A stretch of DNA of 7,023 bases from a virus. Its lineage: Duplodnaviria; Heunggongvirae; Uroviricota; Caudoviricetes. Positions within the stretch are counted from its first letter, which is position 1. Each line of letters begins with the position of its first letter. The notes under the pieces are model-generated. The model made no database searches, was not told the origin of the DNA, and saw only the letters and a program-made list of their open reading frames with translations. Made by a program: the position numbers and the translations under genes. Location: IMG/VR virus record IMGVR_UViG_2695420687_000004, positions 1 to 7,023 of that record, one strand, 5' to 3'. This document shows positions 1-7,023 of the stretch, in pieces.

Positions 1-312
1 GGCGAGCAAACTGCAGCAGATAATCCGCGACCATATCGGAGCAAAGCACTGCCGCCCCGCTGACGCCAAATCAAGTTTTGCCTGGTCAGCGATGGCATCC
101 AGCGAACGGGCCAGCGTGCCGGACTCACCCGCTTTACCGCTGGCAGTCAGCACATCAGTGATCAGCACGGGTTTATTAAGAGGAAACATTTTTGCATCGG
201 CATCATCGCCCGTGCAGACCATGCCCACGATGGCGGTGCTCACCGTGGTAATGGATCGGGTGCCTTCGTTGATTTCAACAACGCGCACCCCGTGGTGGTA
301 ATCCTGAGCCAT
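1..312 (-). CDS. FI: tail sheath protein (P2 FI-like), N-terminal 104 codons; gene continues beyond the left window edge
   Basis: ATG at 312..310 with SD AGGAGG 9 nt upstream on the minus strand (complement of 322..327). Translation [54 protein letters not shown]... matches my recollection of P2-family contractile sheath N-termini and the expected position after G and the Z/fun slot. No stop before position 1. Not in the ORF track because it is open-ended. The last ~25 codons (plus 1..75) look atypical (see findings). Confidence 0.6.
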
Positions 313-388
313 AGCGGCGAACCTCCTGATTGGATTAGGCTTCGCCCTATGTTGAAGTGATTGTGCCCGACAAACAGCTAAGTGTAGT

Positions 389-406
389 TGTACCGTTATT
401 CACACA
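389..406 (-). promoter_or_regulatory. candidate Ogr/Delta-type late-promoter activator site (TGT-N12-ACA dyad) upstream of the sheath gene
   Basis: TGTACCGTTATTCACACA at 389..406 is a TGT-N12-ACA dyad centred ~86 bp upstream of the FI start codon. If centred at about -55, as in P2 late promoters, the transcript would start near 342 and leave a ~30-nt leader. Caveat: this 6-fixed-base motif is expected ~1.7 times by chance in 7 kb, so position is the main support. Confidence 0.35.
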
Positions 407-454
407 AAATGACGGTATTTGTCTGCTTTCAGGGATAATCAAAATAAAGCTGAT

Positions 455-1021
455 TCAGGGAGATTCATTGCTCTTATTTGCCGGAAATTTTCGATAAATG
501 GTAGAAACGCCTACATCAAAAATCAGTGCAATACGCTGTCTTGATTCTCCGGCCTTGAGTAAACGCCCAATCTGTGCCCACTGTTCGCTGGTCAACTTAG
601 GACGGCGTCCACCTACTCTGCCTTTGGCACGAGCTGCAGCCAGCCCTGCCCTGGTACGTTCAACTATCAGTTCGCGTTCCATTTCAGCCAGGGCACCCAT
701 GACATGAAAAAAGAAACGGCCCATTGGGGTACTGGTATCAATACTGTCAGTCAGACTTCGGAAATTCACGCCGCGCTGGCGCAACTCTTCTATCAGCGTA
801 ACAAGATGCCGCATACTGCGTCCCAACCTGTCCAGCTTCCAGACAACCAGCGTGTCTCCTGCCGATAGTGTCCTGAGTAGTTTTTTCAGCCCCGGTCTGT
901 CGGACTTAGTGCCACTGATTTTGTCCTCAAAAATCCGCTCACATCCCGCGCAGTTCAGTGCATTACGTTGCAAATCGGTGTTCTGGTCATTTGTTGACAC
1001 GCGTACATAGCCAATAAGCAT
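455..1021 (-). CDS. site-specific serine DNA invertase, Gin/Pin/Cin/Hin family (188 aa)
   Basis: From ATG 1021..1019 (SD AGGGGA, 6-nt spacer): MLIGYVRVSTNDQNTDLQRNAL... with the catalytic-serine motif YVRVST, VVWKLDRLGRS, FRSLTDSIDTSTPMGRFFFHVMGALAEMERE and a C-terminal HTH region (GRRPKLT...STIYRKF), the hallmark of phage DNA invertases. Length 188 aa fits the family (~185-195 aa). The ORF-track start at 1138 adds 39 codons that read through the crossover-site region and is rejected. Confidence 0.93.
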   Translation of the reverse strand: MLIGYVRVSTNDQNTDLQRNALNCAGCERIFEDKISGTKSDRPGLKKLLRTLSAGDTLVVWKLDRLGRSMRHLVTLIEELRQRGVNFRSLTDSIDTSTPMGRFFFHVMGALAEMERELIVERTRAGLAAARAKGRVGGRRPKLTSEQWAQIGRLLKAGESRQRIALIFDVGVSTIYRKFPANKSNESP

Positions 1022-1076
1022 GATCAATCCCCTGAATAAAAACCGGGGATGATGCCAGTTAGCCATTATCTCTGCA

Positions 1077-1102
1077 TTTTCATAAACGTTGGTTTGGGAG
1101 AA
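1077..1102. other. inversion crossover site, left (hix/gix/cix/pix-like 26-bp site: 12-bp half-sites around a 2-bp core)
   Basis: TTTTCATAAACG-TT-GGTTTGGGAGAA. The AAAC..GTTT-type imperfect dyad around a 2-bp core matches the architecture of Hin/Gin/Cin sites (for example hixL TTCTTGAAAACCAAGGTTTTTGATAA, from memory). The inner half-site plus 9 further bp (1089..1111) is a perfect inverted copy of 2451..2473. The site lies 56 bp upstream of the invertase start codon. Confidence 0.75.
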
Positions 1103-1483
1103 GCGGCAAAACGGAATATCGGTGCTGGAGCCAATCAAGTCCCCGACATGTCCTTTTTTACATCAGCAAAGGGTGATAACGGATACTTTTCCTTACCGGA
1201 CGGCACTATTGTGCAATATGGAAAAGCCACAACGATAAGAAATAATGAAATTAGCCTGGTAACTTTGCCATTTTCCTTTCCCACAAAGTTCTCTCAGGTA
1301 CTGATAACCCATGATGATGCCGCAACTACAAATGCAGTTGCTTTTGGCGCCGCCACTCCAAAAACTGTTTCAACATTTCAGGTTGTCGTGCAGAAACTAG
1401 ATTTTAATACCGCCACTGGAGCTGTCACATTACGAACCACTGCTTCACCGTGCTACTTCCGTTATATCGCAATCGGGAGCTAA
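1091..1483 (+). CDS. alternative tail-fibre C-terminal (receptor-binding) cassette H'v, promoterless in this orientation; after inversion it would fuse in frame to codon 350 of H
   Basis: Plus-strand frame of ORF 1049..1483. From 1091 it encodes GLGEAAK (identical to H residues 351-357, same DNA in inverted orientation) followed by 123 different residues (RNIGAGANQVPDMSFF...CYFRYIAIGS) and a stop at 1481..1483. Frame continuity across the core TT/AA dinucleotide was verified by hand. The ORF-track start at 1049 lies outside the segment and is not used. Confidence 0.7.
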   Translation, partial: GLGEAAKRNIGAGANQVPDMSFFTSAKGDNGYFSLPDGTIVQYGKATTIRNNEISLVTLPFSFPTKFSQVLITHDDAATTNAVAFGAATPKTVSTFQVVVQKLDFNTATGAVTLRTTASPCYFRYIAIGS

Positions 1484-1487
1484 TTTT

Positions 1488-1712
1488 ATGCAAAACAAAT
1501 ACAGTCCATCTATGAATACGTTCTTTATGGCTGAATTTATGCGTCGTTACGAACAAGCTGGTACATTGCCTGATGATGCAATAGAGATACCCGATGAAGT
1601 ATTTAAAGAATACACAGGGGAACCACCGGACGGAATGATGAGGGTTGCGGGTAGTGATGGTCTACCCGCATGGGCAGAAATTATTTACACTCAGGAACCA
1701 TCGGCCAGATGA
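1488..1712 (+). CDS. truncated paralogue of the tail-fibre assembly chaperone (G'/Tfa', 74 aa), partner of the H'v cassette; possibly a pseudogene
   Basis: SD GGGAG 8 nt upstream of ATG 1488, 4 bp after the H'v stop. The product (..YSPSMNTFF..YEQAGTLPDD..GEPPDGMMRVAGSDGLPAWAEI..) aligns with the N-terminal half of G (..FSPAENAFY..YLTAGTWPSD..GEAPEGKVRSIGDDGLPCWVDL..) but stops where G continues for ~75 more residues. Its 3' end overlaps the 3' end of G convergently (1681..1712). Confidence 0.5.
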   Translation: MQNKYSPSMNTFFMAEFMRRYEQAGTLPDDAIEIPDEVFKEYTGEPPDGMMRVAGSDGLPAWAEIIYTQEPSAR

Positions 1713-2118
1713 TATCAGGAGCACTGGAGGTATCAATCAGTTCCAGTGCGTCCAGATAATCCAGCCACAGATTATATTGCGCCAGTTCCTCACCTTTCAG
1801 ACGCCCGATTGCTGCTTTGCCGGGCCACTGCTTGCTATTCATATAATCGTTGGCCTGGTCAATTCTCGACTGCTTTTCTGAGTCAGCCACTGCAAGTTGT
1901 TCTTCATGCGTAGGTGGCGGAAGATCTACCCAGCAAGGCAACCCATCATCACCAATGCTCCGCACTTTACCTTCGGGAGCTTCTCCCATGAAAACCAGCG
2001 CATCGGCAGCATTTATATTGATGCCGTCTGACGGCCATGTGCCAGCAGTTAAATAATCATCTTGTAGTGCTACAAGATAAAAAGCATTTTCAGCCGGGCT
2101 GAATACATAGTCGACCAT
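1681..2118 (-). CDS. G: tail fibre assembly chaperone (P2 gpG / Tfa family), 145 aa
   Basis: ATG 2118..2116 overlaps the H stop (TAATG). N-terminus MVDYVFSPAENAFY and C-terminal ..APDIIWPMVPECK resemble the Tfa-family N-terminal YFS..N.FY and C-terminal DIEWP..P motifs (recollection). The ORF-track start at 2136 is an alternative 6-codon-longer start. Confidence 0.8.
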   Translation of the reverse strand: MVDYVFSPAENAFYLVALQDDYLTAGTWPSDGININAADALVFMGEAPEGKVRSIGDDGLPCWVDLPPPTHEEQLAVADSEKQSRIDQANDYMNSKQWPGKAAIGRLKGEELAQYNLWLDYLDALELIDTSSAPDIIWPMVPECK

Positions 2119-3521
2119 TAATATCCCACTCCCCATACTGCCACTGTTGAATTAGATTTCGTATATGCGCAAGCGGCTTTGAATTTGACCCGGTCAACAA
2201 TCGCTGCGCTAACAAAAGGAGCTCCATTAGTCGCGTAGATCACAGAATTGACCAGCGAAGGATTGATGGAAAGGCAAGCATTAGGAAAGGCAACCGGCCA
2301 TGAGTCATCAACAACGACCATATTACCGTCGGTAGATTGCGGCACTGATACCATCTTCCACTGAAGCAGTGCTGTTCGTTGTACTCCACCAATTAATACT
2401 GGAATAGTGATGTTACCTGCACTGCTGGCCAATGCTGTTGCAGCAGGCATTTTTGCCGCTTCTCCCAAACCAAGGTATGTGAGAAGACCAGCTACATCCT
2501 TTCCACTCAAATTAGTCAGCGTATTGTCCAGCGGTTGTTTACCTGCCAGTGCATTAAGCATTGTCGTGGCAAAGTTCGGGTCATTCCCCAGCGCCGCCGC
2601 CAGTTCGTTCAGTGTATCCAGTGCCGCAGGTGCAGAACCCACCATTGCCGCAATCGCCGATTTCACAAAAGCCGTAGTGGCAATCTGTGTATTGTTGACC
2701 GACTGCGCCGCCGTGGGGGCTGTTGGCGTTCCGGTGAGTGCCGGACTCGACAGTGGCGCTTTCAGTGCCAGCGCATTGTTAATGGTGGTACTGAATTTCG
2801 GATCATTGTTAATGGCTACGGCTATTTCTTTCAGCGTGTCCAGCGTGGCTGGAGCACCATTAATAAGAGCCGTCAGTGCCGCCTGAACAAACGCGGTGGT
2901 CGCAACCTGCGTGGTGTTATTCCCCGCCGCTGGCGTTGGCGCTTTGGGGGTTCCGGTAAACGTCGGACTTTCTTTGGGTGCATACTGTGAATGCGGGTCC
3001 GGTGCGGCAAGATGTTTTGCCATCAGGTCATCCACGTACACCTTCAGCTCCAGTGCCTTGTCATCCACATACTTGCGGGTTGCCAGCACTACGGCAGGGT
3101 CGATTTTCAGTGTGATATTGTCCGTGCTGCTGGTAATCAACACCATACGCACGGTCTGGGTACGCCCGCTGCCTTCAGCCAGTTGCGGCTTATAGCTTTC
3201 CGGGCAGTTGCCCACGGCAATCAATGCCCCGGACTCATCAAACAGGCCCACTTCACGTATCCACCAACCGCCCTCGTTTTCAGGGATCACCTGTTCAGCA
3301 ATAATCTGGCTGCTGTTCTGCGGGTCGATATAGAGCATATTCAGCGCAGCCCGGCGTTTCTCATTTACTAATGCTGTCTGCTTTGCGTTCGGCGTTGGCA
3401 ATGTTCCGCCGCCATCGCCGACCGCCATATGGGTAATTTTTAAAGGCACACCGAGCGCGGCGGCGCTGGCAAGTTTCTCCGCGCCAATATCCGTCAGCAG
3501 GGTATAAAATTTTGTGCTCAT
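2118..3521 (-). CDS. H: tail fibre protein (P2 gpH-like), 467 aa; constant N-terminal 350 residues plus invertible C-terminal receptor-binding tip
   Basis: ATG 3521..3519 overlaps the I stop (ATGA); SD-like GAGAG 7 nt upstream. N-terminus MSTKFYTLL..GAEKLA..MAVGDGGG..YKPQLAEGSGR and collar repeats (..NNTQIATTAFV.., ..LDTLNELAAALGNDPNFATTMLNALAGKQPL) are characteristic of P2 H / Mu S-type fibres as I recall them. The crossover core falls between codons 350 and 351. Confidence 0.9.
   Translation of the reverse strand: MSTKFYTLLTDIGAEKLASAAALGVPLKITHMAVGDGGGTLPTPNAKQTALVNEKRRAALNMLYIDPQNSSQIIAEQVIPENEGGWWIREVGLFDESGALIAVGNCPESYKPQLAEGSGRTQTVRMVLITSSTDNITLKIDPAVVLATRKYVDDKALELKVYVDDLMAKHLAAPDPHSQYAPKESPTFTGTPKAPTPAAGNNTTQVATTAFVQAALTALINGAPATLDTLKEIAVAINNDPKFSTTINNALALKAPLSSPALTGTPTAPTAAQSVNNTQIATTAFVKSAIAAMVGSAPAALDTLNELAAALGNDPNFATTMLNALAGKQPLDNTLTNLSGKDVAGLLTYLGLGEAAKMPAATALASSAGNITIPVLIGGVQRTALLQWKMVSVPQSTDGNMVVVDDSWPVAFPNACLSINPSLVNSVIYATNGAPFVSAAIVDRVKFKAACAYTKSNSTVAVWGVGY
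2460..2485. other. inversion crossover site, right (hix/gix/cix/pix-like), inside the tail-fibre gene
   Basis: TTCTCCCAAACC-AA-GGTATGTGAGAA on the plus strand; the two half-sites are 10/12 dyad-symmetric. The inner half-site is identical to the inner half-site of the left site in inverted orientation, with the same 2-bp core. Confidence 0.75.
2529..2960 (-). repeat. diverged tandem duplication (two ~215-bp units) inside the constant part of the fibre gene
   Basis: H residues ~188-257 (TFTGTPKAPTPAAGNNTTQVATTAFVQAALTALINGAPATLDTLKEIAVAINNDPKFSTTINNALALKAPL) and ~261-331 (ALTGTPTAPTAAQSVNNTQIATTAFVKSAIAAMVGSAPAALDTLNELAAALGNDPNFATTMLNALAGKQPL) are about 60% identical. The DNA units are visibly similar, for example ttcagtgtatccagtgccgcaggtgcag vs ttcagcgtgtccagcgtggctggagcac. 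Coordinates approximate. Confidence 0.6.
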
Positions 3522-4123
3522 GGATTCACTCTCATTGTGTCAATAACATGGACCGCCCCGCCTTCATGCGCGGTGCCGCCAGAAATAATTGTTTCGTTGA
3601 TATACGGATAGATCGTGATTTCTTCGCCAAGATAGCTGGCGGCTCCCACCCAATGCGGGCCGCTGGTCTGCAGGTTGATGGACATGCCGATCATGTGACG
3701 GCTACATGGTTTGGCATCGCTTATCAGTCGCTCAAGTTCCAGATAGGTATCTTCAGTGATGCCCTGGTCCTGCACGCCGATATCCAGGCGAAACGTGCCC
3801 GGTGTCTCTCCGGTCTGCCACCACTCAATAATGCGGATCAGAAAGCCGAACGGCTCCACCACCCGCCGCACGGCACTGGTGGTCCCTTTATGCTGATGAA
3901 TATAAAAAGCATCCTTCACCACCTGGCGCTTGACGCTTTCTGTCCAGCCCTCGTCCCAGCGATCCACAGAGAACGCCCAGGCGAGATAAGGCAGGAAACT
4001 GACCGGACAGGTTGCCGGATTCCACAAGTCACGCAGCGGCACCTGCAGATCAGTAATCCCGCTGCAGGTTTGCGCCAGTCGGCGCTCCAGTGAAGTTGAA
4101 CCCGGTGGCAGCAGACTATTCAT
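3518..4123 (-). CDS. I: baseplate protein (P2 gpI-like), 201 aa
   Basis: ATG 4123..4121 with SD GGAGG 5 nt upstream; start overlaps the J stop by 8 bp. Motif LWNPATCP..LPYLAWAFSVDRWDE and the position between J and H match the P2 gpI family (recollection plus synteny). Confidence 0.8.
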   Translation of the reverse strand: MNSLLPPGSTSLERRLAQTCSGITDLQVPLRDLWNPATCPVSFLPYLAWAFSVDRWDEGWTESVKRQVVKDAFYIHQHKGTTSAVRRVVEPFGFLIRIIEWWQTGETPGTFRLDIGVQDQGITEDTYLELERLISDAKPCSRHMIGMSINLQTSGPHWVGAASYLGEEITIYPYINETIISGGTAHEGGAVHVIDTMRVNP

Positions 4124-5024
4124 CCGTTCCTCCGTTGGTTACGTGCCACTGCGTACATGATGCCGCCTGTGTTTTGTTCAGGACCACATCCGCCAGAGGA
4201 GAAGCCAGCTCCACACGCTGCACACCCTCAACATGCAGGGCGGCAAAGATGGCGCTACGGCGAATATCCCGACCAAGACGCGTCTGACTGGCGATGTACT
4301 TCTGCAGGCTGACTTTTGCCGCTGCCATTACCGGCTCTGCTTCCGGTCCCGGATAAAGAAAAATGGTGGCTTCCACTCGGTACGGGATGATTTCTGCGCT
4401 GCGAACCGTCAGACGGTTAGCCACCGGGCGGACGTTCTCACTGTTCAGGGCGTTCTCCACCACATCCAGCAAGTCTTTTTCTGCTGTTCCGTCGCCTTCG
4501 CGGCTAAGGACAGTCAGCACCACCTCTGCAGGTGCCGGACTGGTTGCACTGGCATCCGCCACCCGACCGTCGGCGCTTCGTGCATGAAACTCATAAGCGG
4601 CAGTTGGCCCCGCAACAGAAAGCCCTTCAAAGGCTGCAGGCACACGCAGGCGTAATGCTTCATCACTTTCCATCACAGCCGCAACGGGCGGTACAGCGTC
4701 ATCATCAGCAGGTGTCACCGTCAGGCGTTTCACGTTGTAGTTAGCAGCGAGCTGGTCAAGATCGCCGCCCATCGCGTAAGCCACCATCACCGCCTGCGCG
4801 GCTTCGTTAATGCGCTGGCGCAGAAGCAACTCACGATAAGCGTTCTCCTGCAACAATTTGGTAACAGGTTCAGATTCCAGTTCCAGCGTGCGGATCACAG
4901 CTTCCTGCTCATCTTTCGGATGAAGCGCCACAAATTCTGCCTTGCGTTCGGCAAGCAGCGTCTCAAAGTCCGGCACATCCACAATCTGCGGCGCAGGCAA
5001 CTGCGAAAGGTCAATCACTGCCAT
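4116..5024 (-). CDS. J: baseplate protein (P2 gpJ-like), 302 aa
   Basis: ATG 5024..5022 with SD GGAG and 6-nt spacer; N-terminus MAVIDLSQLPAPQIVDVPDFETLLAERKAEF is typical of gpJ-family baseplate proteins. The ORF-track start at 5063 is a 13-codon extension without an SD and would overlap W more deeply. Confidence 0.85.
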   Translation of the reverse strand: MAVIDLSQLPAPQIVDVPDFETLLAERKAEFVALHPKDEQEAVIRTLELESEPVTKLLQENAYRELLLRQRINEAAQAVMVAYAMGGDLDQLAANYNVKRLTVTPADDDAVPPVAAVMESDEALRLRVPAAFEGLSVAGPTAAYEFHARSADGRVADASATSPAPAEVVLTVLSREGDGTAEKDLLDVVENALNSENVRPVANRLTVRSAEIIPYRVEATIFLYPGPEAEPVMAAAKVSLQKYIASQTRLGRDIRRSAIFAALHVEGVQRVELASPLADVVLNKTQAASCTQWHVTNGGTDE

Positions 5025-5370
5025 TCTCTGCTCCTGTTGATACGGAAAGGGAAACAGGCACACCGTTATTACGCCGCCCGGTCAGCGCCACCACCATTGA
5101 ACCGTCAAAATGGCTGTTGATGGTGATGGAATCCAGCGTCAGCCGTGGCTCCCAGCGACTCAGCGCCACATACACTGCCGACATGACCTGCAGGCGTAAC
5201 GCCGGATTTTGTGGCTGGTCTATCAGTGCCGACAGCAGGGAACCATATTCACGGCGAGCAATGCGGCTACCCTGCGGCGTCAGCAGAATGTCCCGCACCG
5301 ACTGGCGCAGATGGTCAATATCAGTAATGGCTTTACCGCTGGTATTGTTCATCCCGCTATAAAGCGTCAT
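5011..5370 (-). CDS. W: baseplate wedge protein (P2 gpW / GPW-gp25 family), 119 aa
   Basis: ATG 5370..5368 overlaps the V stop (ATGA); SD GGAGG with 6-nt spacer. Size and position between V and J fit gpW. Confidence 0.85.
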   Translation of the reverse strand: MTLYSGMNNTSGKAITDIDHLRQSVRDILLTPQGSRIARREYGSLLSALIDQPQNPALRLQVMSAVYVALSRWEPRLTLDSITINSHFDGSMVVALTGRRNNGVPVSLSVSTGAENGSD

Positions 5371-5945
5371 ACCGGGCCTCCAGTTGTGTCGCCGCCTTTC
5401 AGGACGCCAGTATGCTGATGCGCATCAACCTCGATCCCGTTAGAACTCATCGCTCCGCCGCCCTGGGTAACGCCACCATTGATCACCACTTCGCTGTTAA
5501 TGCGCGTGCGGTCAGCCTCCAGTACAAACTCACTGGTTTTCATGGTGATGTTGTCAGCGGCCTCAATGACCATTGATTTGATGCCCCTGACATACCAGCG
5601 CCCGGTGGCGGGTTCGTATTCAAACCAGCTACCGTCAGGATGTTCTGTCACGCAGGCGTCCGCCGACGTCGACGGTGGTGCGAACTGATTCGAATAGACA
5701 GCGGGCAGCGCAAAGGCGGTCTCCAGATTGCCGCCCAGACTCAGCAGCACCACCTGCTCACCTTCCGATGGTTTCCACCATGTCCGGGCATTACCCGCGC
5801 GCAGCGTCAGCCAGTTAATCCAGTTGGTTTCAAGGTCGCCCGTTTTCACCCGGCAAAGCCAGTTTTCCCGGTCCACTTCGGTGACTACACCTATGCGGAT
5901 CAGATTGGTGATAAGGCGCATGATTTCGGTTAGTTGTGCGTTCAT
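5367..5945 (-). CDS. V: baseplate spike / assembly protein (P2 gpV-like), 192 aa from ATG 5945 (alternative start 5921)
   Basis: MNAQLTEIMRLITNLIRIGVVTEVDRENWLCRVKTGD...TWWKPSEGEQVV..LGGNLETAFALP.. with a Gly-rich C-terminus, typical of gpV-type spike proteins. The start is chosen at the sharp composition boundary near 5946; neither 5945 nor 5921 has a clear SD. The ORF-track extension to 6188 runs antisense through the AT-rich island and the 5' end of the membrane-protein gene and is rejected. Confidence 0.8.
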   Translation of the reverse strand: MNAQLTEIMRLITNLIRIGVVTEVDRENWLCRVKTGDLETNWINWLTLRAGNARTWWKPSEGEQVVLLSLGGNLETAFALPAVYSNQFAPPSTSADACVTEHPDGSWFEYEPATGRWYVRGIKSMVIEAADNITMKTSEFVLEADRTRINSEVVINGGVTQGGGAMSSNGIEVDAHQHTGVLKGGDTTGGPV

Positions 5946-5991
5946 AGATATATGATGACAGCTGAAAACTTGTTTATAACTTCTTGCAAAT

Positions 5992-6009
5992 TGTGGTATC
6001 GATGGTACA
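5992..6009 (-). promoter_or_regulatory. possible late-promoter activator dyad (TGT-N12-ACA) for the V-W-J-I-H-G operon
   Basis: TGTGGTATCGATGGTACA at 5992..6009, in the intergenic region upstream of V. It is centred only ~55 bp from the 5945 start codon, so it fits well only if the transcript starts very close to the ATG or if V starts at 5921. The motif is expected by chance about once or twice per 7 kb. Confidence 0.25.
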
Positions 6010-6048
6010 AATTGATAAAAGGATAAAAAACAACCAATAGGTGGATAA

Positions 6049-6855
6049 ATGAGTGTTATGAATCCAATAAGTTCTAATATATTTAATGCTGAATTTTTAA
6101 ACACCCCGGCAGCGGCACTTGCCGCATGGATTTCCATTATTGGAGCTGTTATAACTTTGGTGACGATAGTTATAAGAGCACTATTCAAATATAGAAAATC
6201 TCATGATGTAATTTTGAAAAAATCAGGAATACCTGCGTTTATATTAAATTTTTTTCTTATACGAATATCATTAAAAAGGCTGCCTACTATCACATGGGCT
6301 GAAAAATCAATCACGGTTCTCTTTTCACTTCTTTTTTTGTATGCAATTTATATTTTTGGTCCAGTTTTCATCCAAGCCATTAGAACCCCACCAAATAGCA
6401 CATTGCTTTATTGGATAAAGTCCGGTGAATCATTTTATATGTCAAAAAAACTGGCGACTGCAGCTACAATATTAACCACTCCTGATTGGGAAATATCAAA
6501 GGATGATTGCGAAGAGTCATCCTCTGCCAGTACAGAGAAGTACAAATCATTAACTATCGAACATAAAGAAATTCTTTGTAAACTACTAACCACTGATGAA
6601 GGGAATGCTTACATTGATGAAGAAGTCAAGAATTTCGTTAAAGACAAATTCTTTATCTATTCCTTTGCCCCAACAACCATATTTATTCTATTATGGATTT
6701 CTTTGGGTTTTATACTGACCATTCACTATTCTAAAAAAGTTAGGAAATATATTCTGACTGAACAAAAAAATGCAATTCATTGGGCATATGGTGAATTCAA
6801 GACAGAAGGAATCTATTCAATATATCAAGAGTTAGAACGTAAGACTCACCATTAA
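6049..6855 (+). CDS. hypothetical multi-pass membrane protein (268 aa) encoded by an AT-rich moron; function unknown
   Basis: ATG 6049 preceded by AGGTGG (6039..6044, 4-nt spacer); possible sigma70-like elements TTGCAA (5984..5989) and TACAAA (6006..6011). Clearly lower GC than the flanking structural genes (by eye, roughly 30% vs 55%). Hydrophobic segments at about residues 21-45, 60-74, 87-110 and 199-224, with positively charged loops (KYRKSH, KKVRK) and an acidic soluble region at ~115-198 (..[34 protein letters not shown]..). It is the only long ORF in the island and lies opposite to the late operon. Confidence 0.75.
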
Positions 6856-7023
6856 GACCCAACAAACGACGCTCTGCGTAACGCACTTCCGCCACGAAGG
6901 AAGACTCCAGCACGCCAGCACGATGACCGCCAGTTGCGGCCGCCCACGCTTTAGCGATCGCCATTCCTTCGCCTTTCGGATCGTTTTCCGGGTGAACGGC
7001 AATCAGCGTCGGTACACCGAATC
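6797..7023 (-). CDS. 3' end of a phage late gene in the P2 gene-S position (probable tail completion / virion morphogenesis protein); gene starts beyond the right window edge
   Basis: Open minus-strand frame entering at 7021 (..[56 protein letters not shown]..), GC-rich like the other structural genes, stopping at TGA 6799..6797 inside the AT-rich island. Identity is inferred from synteny only; I do not recognise the sequence. Confidence 0.4.

Follow-up and report, generated by a model that had tools for sequence, protein, structure and literature searches.

A probable Pin/Gin-type inversion switch for the tail-fibre tip in the accessory slot of a P2-like phage

Does the DNA between tail genes G and FI of a P2-like phage hold a switch that exchanges the tip of the tail fibre, and do both states of that switch occur in nature? 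Tail-fibre inversion by invertases of the Gin/Pin family has been in the textbooks since the 1980s, and a first-pass annotation had placed such a switch in the G-FI slot of a P2-like prophage. The locus lies in a 7,023-nucleotide stretch of DNA, the whole of which was analysed and is called the window below. Its tail module runs V-W-J-I-H-G and then, beyond an accessory slot, continues with the FI sheath operon (according to Pfam, sister prophages and P2), which is the P2-like order. The G-FI placement holds against the P2 reference, where this slot is filled by fun(Z); in the sister prophages the order is V-W-J-I-H-Tfa-[segment]-invertase-sheath.

The term prophage fits the sister copies, in which a complete phage is present, and not the copy in the window. 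Phage DNA spans only positions 75 to 6891 there, and homology stops abruptly inside the sheath gene and gene S; the outermost 72 bases of the window are bioF-like and the 140 bases at the other end are ilvC-like, neither of them phage. Because of these ends the copy of the phage block in the window must be truncated or chimeric and, cut at 75 and 6891 by non-phage DNA, it may not belong to a viable phage. The bioF/phage junction had no exact match among the metagenome and viral contigs scanned, and an ORF with a DUF6216 domain gave no hits in the PADLOC and PHROGs scans. Such ends would suit a frozen relic, that is, a copy that keeps the architecture of an inversion switch and no longer switches (the block being truncated or chimeric, or the invertase unexpressed), its orientation having become fixed. 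L019 and L021 point in the same direction, being forms of this prophage from which a deletion has removed the invertase or the silent cassette.

The evidence for a switch starts with the repeats. A repeat search of the window returned one long inverted repeat, with arms at 1077-1111 and 2451-2485 (35 nt, 89% complementary), which contains or delimits the following elements:

1077..1102: invertase-proximal crossover site, 26 bp, TTTTCATAAACG TT GGTTTGGGAGAA
2460..2485: H-proximal crossover site, 26 bp, TTCTCCCAAACC AA GGTATGTGAGAA
1089..1111: left arm of a perfect 23-bp inverted repeat, composed of the core dinucleotide, the inner half-site and 9 bp, and encoding GLGEAAK
2451..2473: right arm of the perfect 23-bp inverted repeat
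1091..2471: invertible segment, 1,381 bp, between the two central dinucleotides

Base-by-base comparison confirmed every coordinate that the first-pass annotation had given for two inverted 26-bp sites sharing a 2-bp core. When 1077-1102 is set against the reverse complement of 2460-2485, 22 of 26 positions match and all four mismatches fall in the outer half-sites, and the perfect 23-bp identity has the central dinucleotide as its exact starting point (TT at 1089-1090; AA, or TT when read on the opposite strand, at 2472-2473). Two hix/gix-type sites in inverted orientation, with the same central dinucleotide (TT/AA) and 12-bp, imperfectly symmetric half-sites around it, are the arrangement of the Gin, Hin, Cin and Pin systems. 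Chance alone would, by our own calculation, give about 3e-7 perfect inverted repeats of 23 bp per 7 kb. A scan of all 26-mers of the window with the symmetric hix/gix consensus, which, as a positive control, also located the G-segment boundaries annotated in phage Mu, found exactly two sites, each scoring 18/24, against 0.13 expected by chance (200 shuffles); a third crossover site that would allow multiple inversions, as at one EPEC locus, was not found in the window at a score of 16/24 or above. Beyond the window, the 23-mer of the repeat was found in at least 120 viral contigs, where it precedes about 40 different tip-sequence keys, and many of these keys occur in the same census both fused to H and silent beside the invertase-side half-site.

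The reading frames that these repeats connect are those of the tail-fibre gene H and of a silent cassette facing it:

2472..3521, minus strand: constant part of tail-fibre gene H, residues 1-350, outside the segment
2118..3521, minus strand: whole H protein in the current state, 467 aa
2118..2471, minus strand: currently expressed variable tip A of H, residues 351-467, ending in VAVWGVGY, with the stop codon
1091..1483, plus strand: silent alternative tip B cassette, 130 codons including GLGEAAK, followed by TAA at 1481-1483

The constant part of H carries a Phage_tail_fib domain (Pfam, residues 1-150, E = 7e-65). The codons for GLGEAAK are in frame in both tips, from residue 351 in H and at 1091-1111 at the head of tip B, exactly as had been proposed at first pass. 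Beyond GLGEAAK the sequences of the two tips are unrelated: tip A (117 aa) gives a weak match to Gp53-like_C over H residues 407-461, and tip B matches the same Pfam family with E = 1.5e-11. At the DNA level tip B is rare: among 5,426 complete E. coli genomes it occurs in one, and no phage record searched contains it; a protein-database search with tip B, from which fused forms cannot be counted, yielded nothing but short ORFs standing alone and a single 225-aa protein, encoded on a contig of 1,958 nt. With the N-terminus of H constant and outside the segment, and a choice of two in-frame C-termini inside, each having its own chaperone gene, the locus reproduces the plan of the Mu G, P1 C and e14 P segments, and the two tips would be expected to differ in receptor specificity.

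Each tip is followed by its chaperone gene:

1681..2118, minus strand: full-length tail-fibre assembly chaperone of the tip A cassette, 145 aa, its ATG overlapping the H stop
1488..1712, plus strand: 74-aa chaperone gene of the tip B cassette, N-terminal Tfa domain only

The earlier description of the present orientation, as the one that expresses the tip ending in VAVWGVGY together with the full-length chaperone, stands as regards tip A and the 145-aa protein. The latter matches Caudo_TAP over positions 3-131 of 131 (Pfam, E = 1.9e-29) and PHROG 188 (E = 4e-56), and a gene of the same length is called in the sister prophages; a PDB sequence search with the 145/151-aa chaperone gave no match. 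What did not stand is the contrast implied by that description, since the 74-aa ORF is a member of a conserved short family and not a truncated relic. This ORF matches Caudo_TAP at positions 4-60 of 131 (20.4 bits, under the cut-off of 22.1), PHROG 188 at positions 44-109 of 207 and also the 70-residue phrog_19350, and in a profile search it aligned with the first 70 residues of Tfa proteins that are 135-200 aa long; because the Caudo_TAP, PHROG 188 and profile alignments cover only that part, its homology is with the N-terminal domain of Tfa only. Tfa proteins combine a variable N-terminal fibre-binding domain with a conserved C-terminal helical trimerisation domain (PMC9608196), and the C-terminal domain is absent from the 74-aa ORF.

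Relatives of the 74-aa ORF keep a length of 66-74 aa down to 73% identity and show dN/dS values of 0.07-0.15 (pairs with dS of at least 0.46), and on both counts a recent truncation or deletion of a full-length tfa was rejected. Judged from these sequences, the family is a conserved, short form of Tfa, limited to the N-terminal domain and under purifying selection. In every case examined its gene lies directly 3' of the tip-cassette position, inside invertible segments; in L003 and L026 the preceding tip is a called gp53-like tip, and the cassette is expressed in at least two records. An AlphaFold2 model of the 74-aa protein built on an eight-sequence alignment (mean pLDDT 61.5, pTM 0.27) was too poor for a fold search. 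We tentatively give nearly even weight to the idea that this protein is a functional stand-alone tail-fibre chaperone, composed of the fibre-binding N-terminal domain of Tfa alone. If so, this small gp53-like tip would be folded with no help from the C-terminal trimerisation domain, which is conserved and held to be the common core of Tfa action. On the other hand, since the chaperone of tip B does not have this domain, fibres made in orientation B might need another factor, which is a point against the switch.

The enzyme that would act on the two sites is encoded next to them:

455..1021, minus strand: serine DNA invertase gene, Pin/Gin family, 188 aa, intact, outside the invertible segment
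937..1000, minus strand: candidate recombinational (Fis) enhancer, putative, at the 5' end of the invertase gene (gene nt 22-85, 64 bp)

The adjacent gene had been called a serine invertase at first pass, and its product has the architecture of a small serine recombinase, with an N-terminal resolvase domain, a nucleophilic Ser and a C-terminal HTH (Pfam Resolvase, E = 2.4e-53; HTH_7, E = 1.2e-15). It is closest to Pin of e14 (85.3% identity to PinE, 73.9% to Mu Gin) and matches the PDB structure of Gin, 3uj3, with E = 5.7e-93. Residues S9 (within VRVSTND), R42, K46, K47, R50 and Q150-x-x-R153-L154 are all present. Invertases that depend on Fis and the enhancer are distinguished by specific residues, in Hin K47, K/R48, K/R51, Q151, R154 and L155 (PMC3798978), whose counterparts here are K46, K47, R50, Q150, R153 and L154 in Gin numbering. 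A complete invertase ORF in which all the checked catalytic and Fis-contact residues are kept argues against the frozen relic.

The ends of the candidate enhancer are two G-N13-C 15-mers, GTGTCAACAAATGAC (986-1000) and GCGCGGGATGTGAGC (937-951), both of which keep their positions in pinE, in gin and in the invertase gene of L003. Centre to centre they are 49 bp apart (in our own register; the Fis motif is degenerate), not 48 bp like the Fis sites of the Hin enhancer. From the coordinates, the centre of the proximal 15-mer lies about 97 bp from the crossover core; the known enhancer is 65 bp long, with a Fis site at either end, and is situated about 100 bp from hixL (PMC3798978). Five invertase genes were searched over their first 300 nt with a strict Fis-consensus regular expression, which matched the distal 15-mer in four of them and missed the proximal one; because of this miss the call of a putative enhancer rests on position and on the relaxed, degenerate G-N13-C motif, and dependence of the inversion on Fis is suggested by analogy.

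Both orientations of the segment do exist, as was found by comparison of different isolates, and these natural flipped copies support the proposal made at first pass of switching between two tips by inversion. The prophage is also present in E. coli GPEC1405 (L001), where it is 99.7-99.9% identical and has the segment in the opposite orientation: in a blastn comparison with the window the strands run minus/plus/minus, with breakpoints within the shared repeat, and the constant part of H aligns at 99.8% identity on the strand opposite to that of the segment. Inversion of 1091-2471 in silico gives the GPEC1405 arrangement with 8 mismatches in 6,399 compared bases, none of them in the segment or at its junctions. 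At the H-proximal site of L001 the outer half-site remains with H and the inner half travels with the segment; tip B is there joined in frame to H in an annotated 480-aa protein, and tip A has become a silent 131-aa ORF. Metagenome contig L150 matches the segment over 1,061 nt with 100% identity and has tip B fused to a different H body. A related element is represented in both orientations by two records that are 99.9% identical (L025 and L026), and the exchange between them is confined to 11 bases, AAAAACC-TT-GG, which include the core.

Orientation A prevails among the assemblies: the exact H protein with tip A is found on 15 contigs, whereas fusions of tip B to H number two (L001 and L150). 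That all 15 contigs are in orientation A gives some room to the frozen relic. However, the segment of the flipped GPEC1405 copy is 100% identical, so that the inversion must be recent, and both sites in the window are intact, the invertase-proximal one being identical to the e14 site (L015 5606-5631); the P segment of e14, itself a defective remnant, still inverts in culture (PMC4272514). Weighing these observations, we regard a fixed orientation of the window copy as improbable.

Flipped copies might also have been made by RecA-dependent homologous recombination between the 23-35-bp inverted repeats and not by the invertase; the products would be identical in sequence, and the exchange between the window and L001 can be placed only within 23 identical bp. 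The exchange in the L025/L026 pair is, however, bracketed to 11 bp with the site core, the identity begins exactly at the core of a 26-bp site next to which a dedicated invertase is encoded, and the same pattern is repeated across many tip types. Moreover, a perfect match of 23 bp does not exceed the shortest length that RecA recombination can use efficiently, and we consider this route very unlikely. Finally, the GPEC1405 record is labelled whole-genome shotgun, and assemblers can be misled by inverted repeats, which would make the difference in orientation between records an artefact of assembly. This explanation is scarcely credible: the 23-35-bp repeat is shorter than any read, the flipped state appears independently in L001, in L150 and in the L025/L026 pair, and the half-sites are exchanged exactly as recombination predicts.

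The sites, the reading frames, the intact invertase and the natural occurrence of both orientations are here matters of observation, and the locus is very probably a site-specific inversion switch of the Pin/Gin type, by which a P2-like phage exchanges its tail-fibre tip. In the mechanism that we propose, dimers of the 188-aa invertase would bind the 26-bp sites at 1077-1102 and 2460-2485 and, by analogy with Hin and Gin, would be activated by Fis bound to an enhancer within the invertase's own gene (candidate at 937-1000). Both sites would then be cut at the central 2 bp, half of the complex turned by 180 degrees and the ends religated, so flipping the 1,381-bp segment 1091-2471; cleavage presumably falls at exactly this dinucleotide, and this particular copy is expected to be capable of switching. 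Because both cassettes open with the same in-frame GLGEAAK codons, the constant body of H (residues 1-350) can join either tip in frame. The orientation seen in the window would yield tip A (117 aa, ending in VAVWGVGY) and then the 145-aa chaperone, and the flipped orientation tip B (130 aa, gp53-like) and then the 74-aa chaperone with its N-terminal domain only. We propose that only the cassette joined to H is downstream of the late promoter, and that a phage population would for this reason hold two kinds of fibre.

Among known systems, the P segment of e14 is the closest in invertase and sites. It resembles the locus in its invertase and invertase-proximal site, as given above, in the inner half-site GGTTTGGGAGAA common to both sites, and in an invertase that lies outside a segment containing two tips and two convergent tfa genes. 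In contrast, e14 is a cryptic lambdoid prophage of E. coli K-12, whereas the element here is P2-like (Peduoviridae tail module, G-FI slot), carries different tips and has the 74-aa short form as one of its chaperones. The G segment of Mu, with its related Gin invertase and 26-bp sites, follows the same logic of a constant S part, variable Sv/Sv' tips and U/U' chaperones; unlike the locus studied here, it has a GA/TC core instead of AA/TT, a length of about 3 kb instead of 1.4 kb, and two full-length chaperones (528 and 534 nt). In EPEC E2348/69, two P2-like prophage loci phase-vary in culture, and sequencing confirmed that the variants coexist (Goldberg et al. 2014, PMC4272514). Likened by their description in that study, these loci share with the window the phage family and the mechanism, whereas one of them has three repeats and four variants and the window has only two sites. 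The Hin/hix flagellar switch of Salmonella uses an invertase of this subfamily and sites of 26 bp whose core is AA/TT, and its enhancer lies within the recombinase gene, about 100 bp away from one of the sites (PMC3798978); the candidate in the window would correspond to this enhancer, and the Fis-contact residues of Hin are kept in the window invertase. However, Hin lies inside its own segment and flips a promoter, whereas here the invertase lies outside and the flip swaps coding 3' ends.

The switch is thus of a known kind, that of Mu and e14, and adds little that is new to it. It is a clean worked example, in which the switch is legible at base resolution and its flipped product is present in public data, and its short chaperone poses a small question, namely how small a fibre chaperone can be. 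One 23-bp site is common to a large pool of interchangeable tip cassettes in P2-like and e14-like phages, and this shared site, together with the cassette pool that it serves, is relevant to the prediction and engineering of host range.

A repeat search returned a single outstanding inverted repeat in the window, with arms at 1077-1111 and 2451-2485. Base-by-base alignment resolved two 26-mer sites, TTTTCATAAACG TT GGTTTGGGAGAA at 1077-1102 and TTCTCCCAAACC AA GGTATGTGAGAA at 2460-2485. The first and the reverse complement of the second agree at 22 of the 26 bases; the four that differ are all in the outer half-sites. A perfect identity of 23 bp (1089-1111 / 2451-2473) starts exactly at the central dinucleotide. 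In the 467-aa tail-fibre protein H (2118-3521, minus strand), residue 351 is the first of the GLGEAAK motif, which also stands at the head of a 130-codon open frame on the plus strand (1091-1483). We then scored every 26-mer of the window against a symmetric hix/gix-type consensus; only these two sites were found (18/24 each, where shuffles expect 0.13), and as a positive control the same scan recovered the annotated boundaries of the phage Mu G segment and the e14 P-segment repeats. The coordinates given in the first-pass annotation for sites, repeat and GLGEAAK were thus all correct. Gene assignments, based on Pfam, are as follows.

Pfam-based features of the window
455-1021, minus strand: serine invertase (Resolvase and HTH_7)
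1091-1483, plus strand: Gp53-like_C tail-fibre tip
1488-1712, plus strand: N-terminal half of the tail-fibre assembly chaperone (Caudo_TAP, weak match)
1681-2136, minus strand: full tail-fibre assembly chaperone (Caudo_TAP)
2118-3521, minus strand: tail fibre H (Phage_tail_fib)
3518-5945, minus strand: P2 genes I, J, W and V

Sister prophages call the chaperone frame at 1681-2136 as a 145-aa gene starting at 2118. Their gene order is the same as in the window, continuing with the invertase, sheath, tube, E/E' and tape-measure genes, and in P2 itself fun(Z) occupies the interval between G and FI. This bears out the earlier placement in the G-FI slot of a P2-like phage.

The serine invertase noted beside the segment is indeed present. 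Its identity is 85.3% with e14 PinE and 73.9% with Mu Gin; in addition to the Resolvase and HTH_7 domains, it has a match to the solved structure of Gin (E=6e-93), and carries the nucleophilic S9 together with R42. It also has K46, K47, R50, Q150, R153 and L154 (Gin numbering), a set reported to be conserved uniquely among Fis/enhancer-dependent invertases (McLean et al., PMC3798978). The crossover site adjoining the gene is base-for-base the invertase-proximal site of e14. Two G-N13-C 15-mers lie within the 5' end of the gene (nucleotides 22-36 and 71-85, window 986-1000 and 937-951), at positions kept in pinE, gin and a Pseudocitrobacter homologue, with the centre of the proximal one ~97 bp from the crossover core. 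The known enhancer spans 65 bp, with a Fis site at either end, and lies ~100 bp from hixL (PMC3798978). We consider 937-1000 a candidate, rather than a demonstrated, recombinational (Fis) enhancer.

The window's arrangement of the segment was absent from 5,426 complete E. coli genomes searched by megablast, one of which (strain GPEC1405) matched 1089-2485 at 99.7%. The GPEC1405 locus carries the same P2-like genes, but its flanks align in minus orientation (99.8-99.9%) and its segment in plus. Compared with it, a window in which 1091-2471 had been flipped in silico showed 8 mismatches over 6,399 bases, with segment and junctions free of any, and an assembly artefact is an improbable source of the orientation difference. 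The outer half-sites remain with the flanks and the inner halves move with the segment, which is the prediction of conservative recombination at the core. In GPEC1405 the window's silent tip is fused in frame with H, annotated as 480 aa (350 + 130) and followed by the 74-aa gene, and the tip expressed in the window (residues 351-467) is a stand-alone silent ORF.

A metagenome contig (L150, 1-1692) contains window 1089-2149 at 100% (1,061 nt), fused to an H body of only 78-81% identity. An identical cassette on a divergent H means that this cassette is also expressed elsewhere and has passed between phages, and that the segment was horizontally exchanged as a unit, with its boundary at the crossover site. 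That the switch is a frozen relic appears unlikely beside an intact enzyme and both recombination products. Both orientations were also seen in a related element (L025/L026, 99.9% identical), whose inner half-sites differ, so that the exchange is bracketed to 11 bases, AAAAACC-TT-GG, central dinucleotide included; we give RecA-mediated exchange across the 23-bp repeat a low probability.

Taken with the sites and reading frames, the flipped copy, the fusion and this pair support the Gin/Pin-type, two-orientation tail-fibre switch proposed in the first-pass annotation. The best explanation is the standard mechanism, in which invertase dimers would bind both 26-bp sites, a Fis-bound enhancer would activate the complex, both sites would be cleaved across the central 2 bp, and subunit rotation and religation would attach one tip or the other to the constant H body. 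The system, which is probably Fis-dependent, may still be active in this copy, and the two tips presumably differ in receptor specificity. It belongs to a well-known kind of inversion switch: e14 Pin is the closest system in enzyme and sites, and the P2-like loci of EPEC are the closest in context. Goldberg et al. (PMC4272514) showed that orientations coexist in cultures, both at e14 and at two EPEC loci of P2-like prophages.

At both ends the window is not phage DNA. Sister prophages all match it solely over 75-6891; positions 1-72 are bioF-like (~90% identical to E. coli bioF) and 6884-7023 are ilvC-like (~93% identical to E. coli), two genes that are far apart on the E. coli chromosome. The junctions (~72-75 and 6884-6892) are abrupt and fall inside the sheath gene and gene S, with two unassigned bases on the left and an 8-nt microhomology, CACTTCCG, on the right. 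The flanks have the look of a non-coli Escherichia-like background, whereas E. coli prophages share 99.9% identity with the 6.8-kb phage block, and the junction was not found in the metagenome and viral collections searched. The window could be a chimeric contig, a construct or a true remnant. A complete prophage is consequently documented only in the sister copies; the coordinates 1077-2485 are unaffected.

Between S and V, an AT-rich ORF (6049-6855, plus strand, 268 aa, 33% GC) with a DUF6216 match converges on and overlaps the 3' end of S. The same slot holds an AAA ATPase and a DUF4435 protein in one sister prophage (L002, 11095-12649) and is empty in another (L017). The interval looks like a variable accessory slot, possibly for defence; the ORF had no PADLOC or PHROG matches, and no relevant literature was found. 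Two further records are deletion derivatives of the same prophage, with endpoints away from the crossover sites. L021 lacks window 613-1721 (1.1 kb), and the deletion leaves a fusion between the 145-aa chaperone and the invertase's HTH end (called as a 183-aa protein, Caudo_TAP plus HTH_7). In L019 everything left of 1663 is replaced, so that the silent cassette is gone along with the invertase and all genes from sheath to tape measure.

The silent cassette (1104-1711) is rare, being present in one of the 5,426 genomes and matched by no phage record at the DNA level, and its GC content is 44-45% versus 55% for the H body. The two chaperone genes converge and share 32 nt at their 3' ends (1681-1712). 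Homology to the commoner E. coli prophage type (L002) begins precisely at 1712, immediately beyond the stop codon of the 74-aa ORF; the final ~10 codons of the 145-aa chaperone thus fall with the rare cassette at this mosaic boundary.

The 74-aa ORF (1488-1712) might be taken for a broken gene, a reading ruled out by its conserved short length and low dN/dS: down to 73% identity its relatives keep a length of 66-74 aa, with dN/dS of 0.07-0.15 (pairs with dS of at least 0.46). In Pseudocitrobacter and three other contexts the homologue directly follows the tip-cassette position and converges on a full-length tfa within an invertible segment; in two loci (L003 and L026) the preceding cassette is a called gp53-like tip. 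In a profile search its counterpart in ordinary Tfa proteins (135-200 aa) was the initial stretch of ~70 residues, and 23 of the top 150 representatives were 90 aa or shorter. In Tfa, fibre binding is the role of the N-terminal domain, and trimerisation that of the conserved C-terminal helices (TfaMu work summarised in PMC9608196). The 74-aa protein therefore has the fibre-binding half only, which might be enough to fold the silent tip; its AlphaFold model was too uncertain to inform. It matches an existing PHROGs family, phrog_19350 (70 residues, unknown function), and a second family, phrog_3792 ('tail assembly chaperone', 78 residues), corresponds to the C-terminal half of Tfa alone. Fibre chaperones that are split or half-size may thus recur as an unstudied arrangement, and a conserved chaperone with the N-terminal domain only is the one mildly novel thread here.

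The 23-mer encoding GLGEAAK, TTGGTTTGGGAGAAGCGGCAAAA, occurs in at least 120 viral contigs, in front of ~40 different tip-sequence keys, each taken as the 20 residues that follow GLGEAAK. Many of these keys are found both fused to H in a long frame and silent beside the invertase-side half-site TTTTCATAAACG, and the 23-bp site occurs with H-side half-sites of both the P2 type (TTCTC[A/G]CATACC) and the e14 type (CTCTCGAAAACC). This distribution suggests that unrelated phage backbones draw on one common pool of exchangeable tip-plus-chaperone cassettes.
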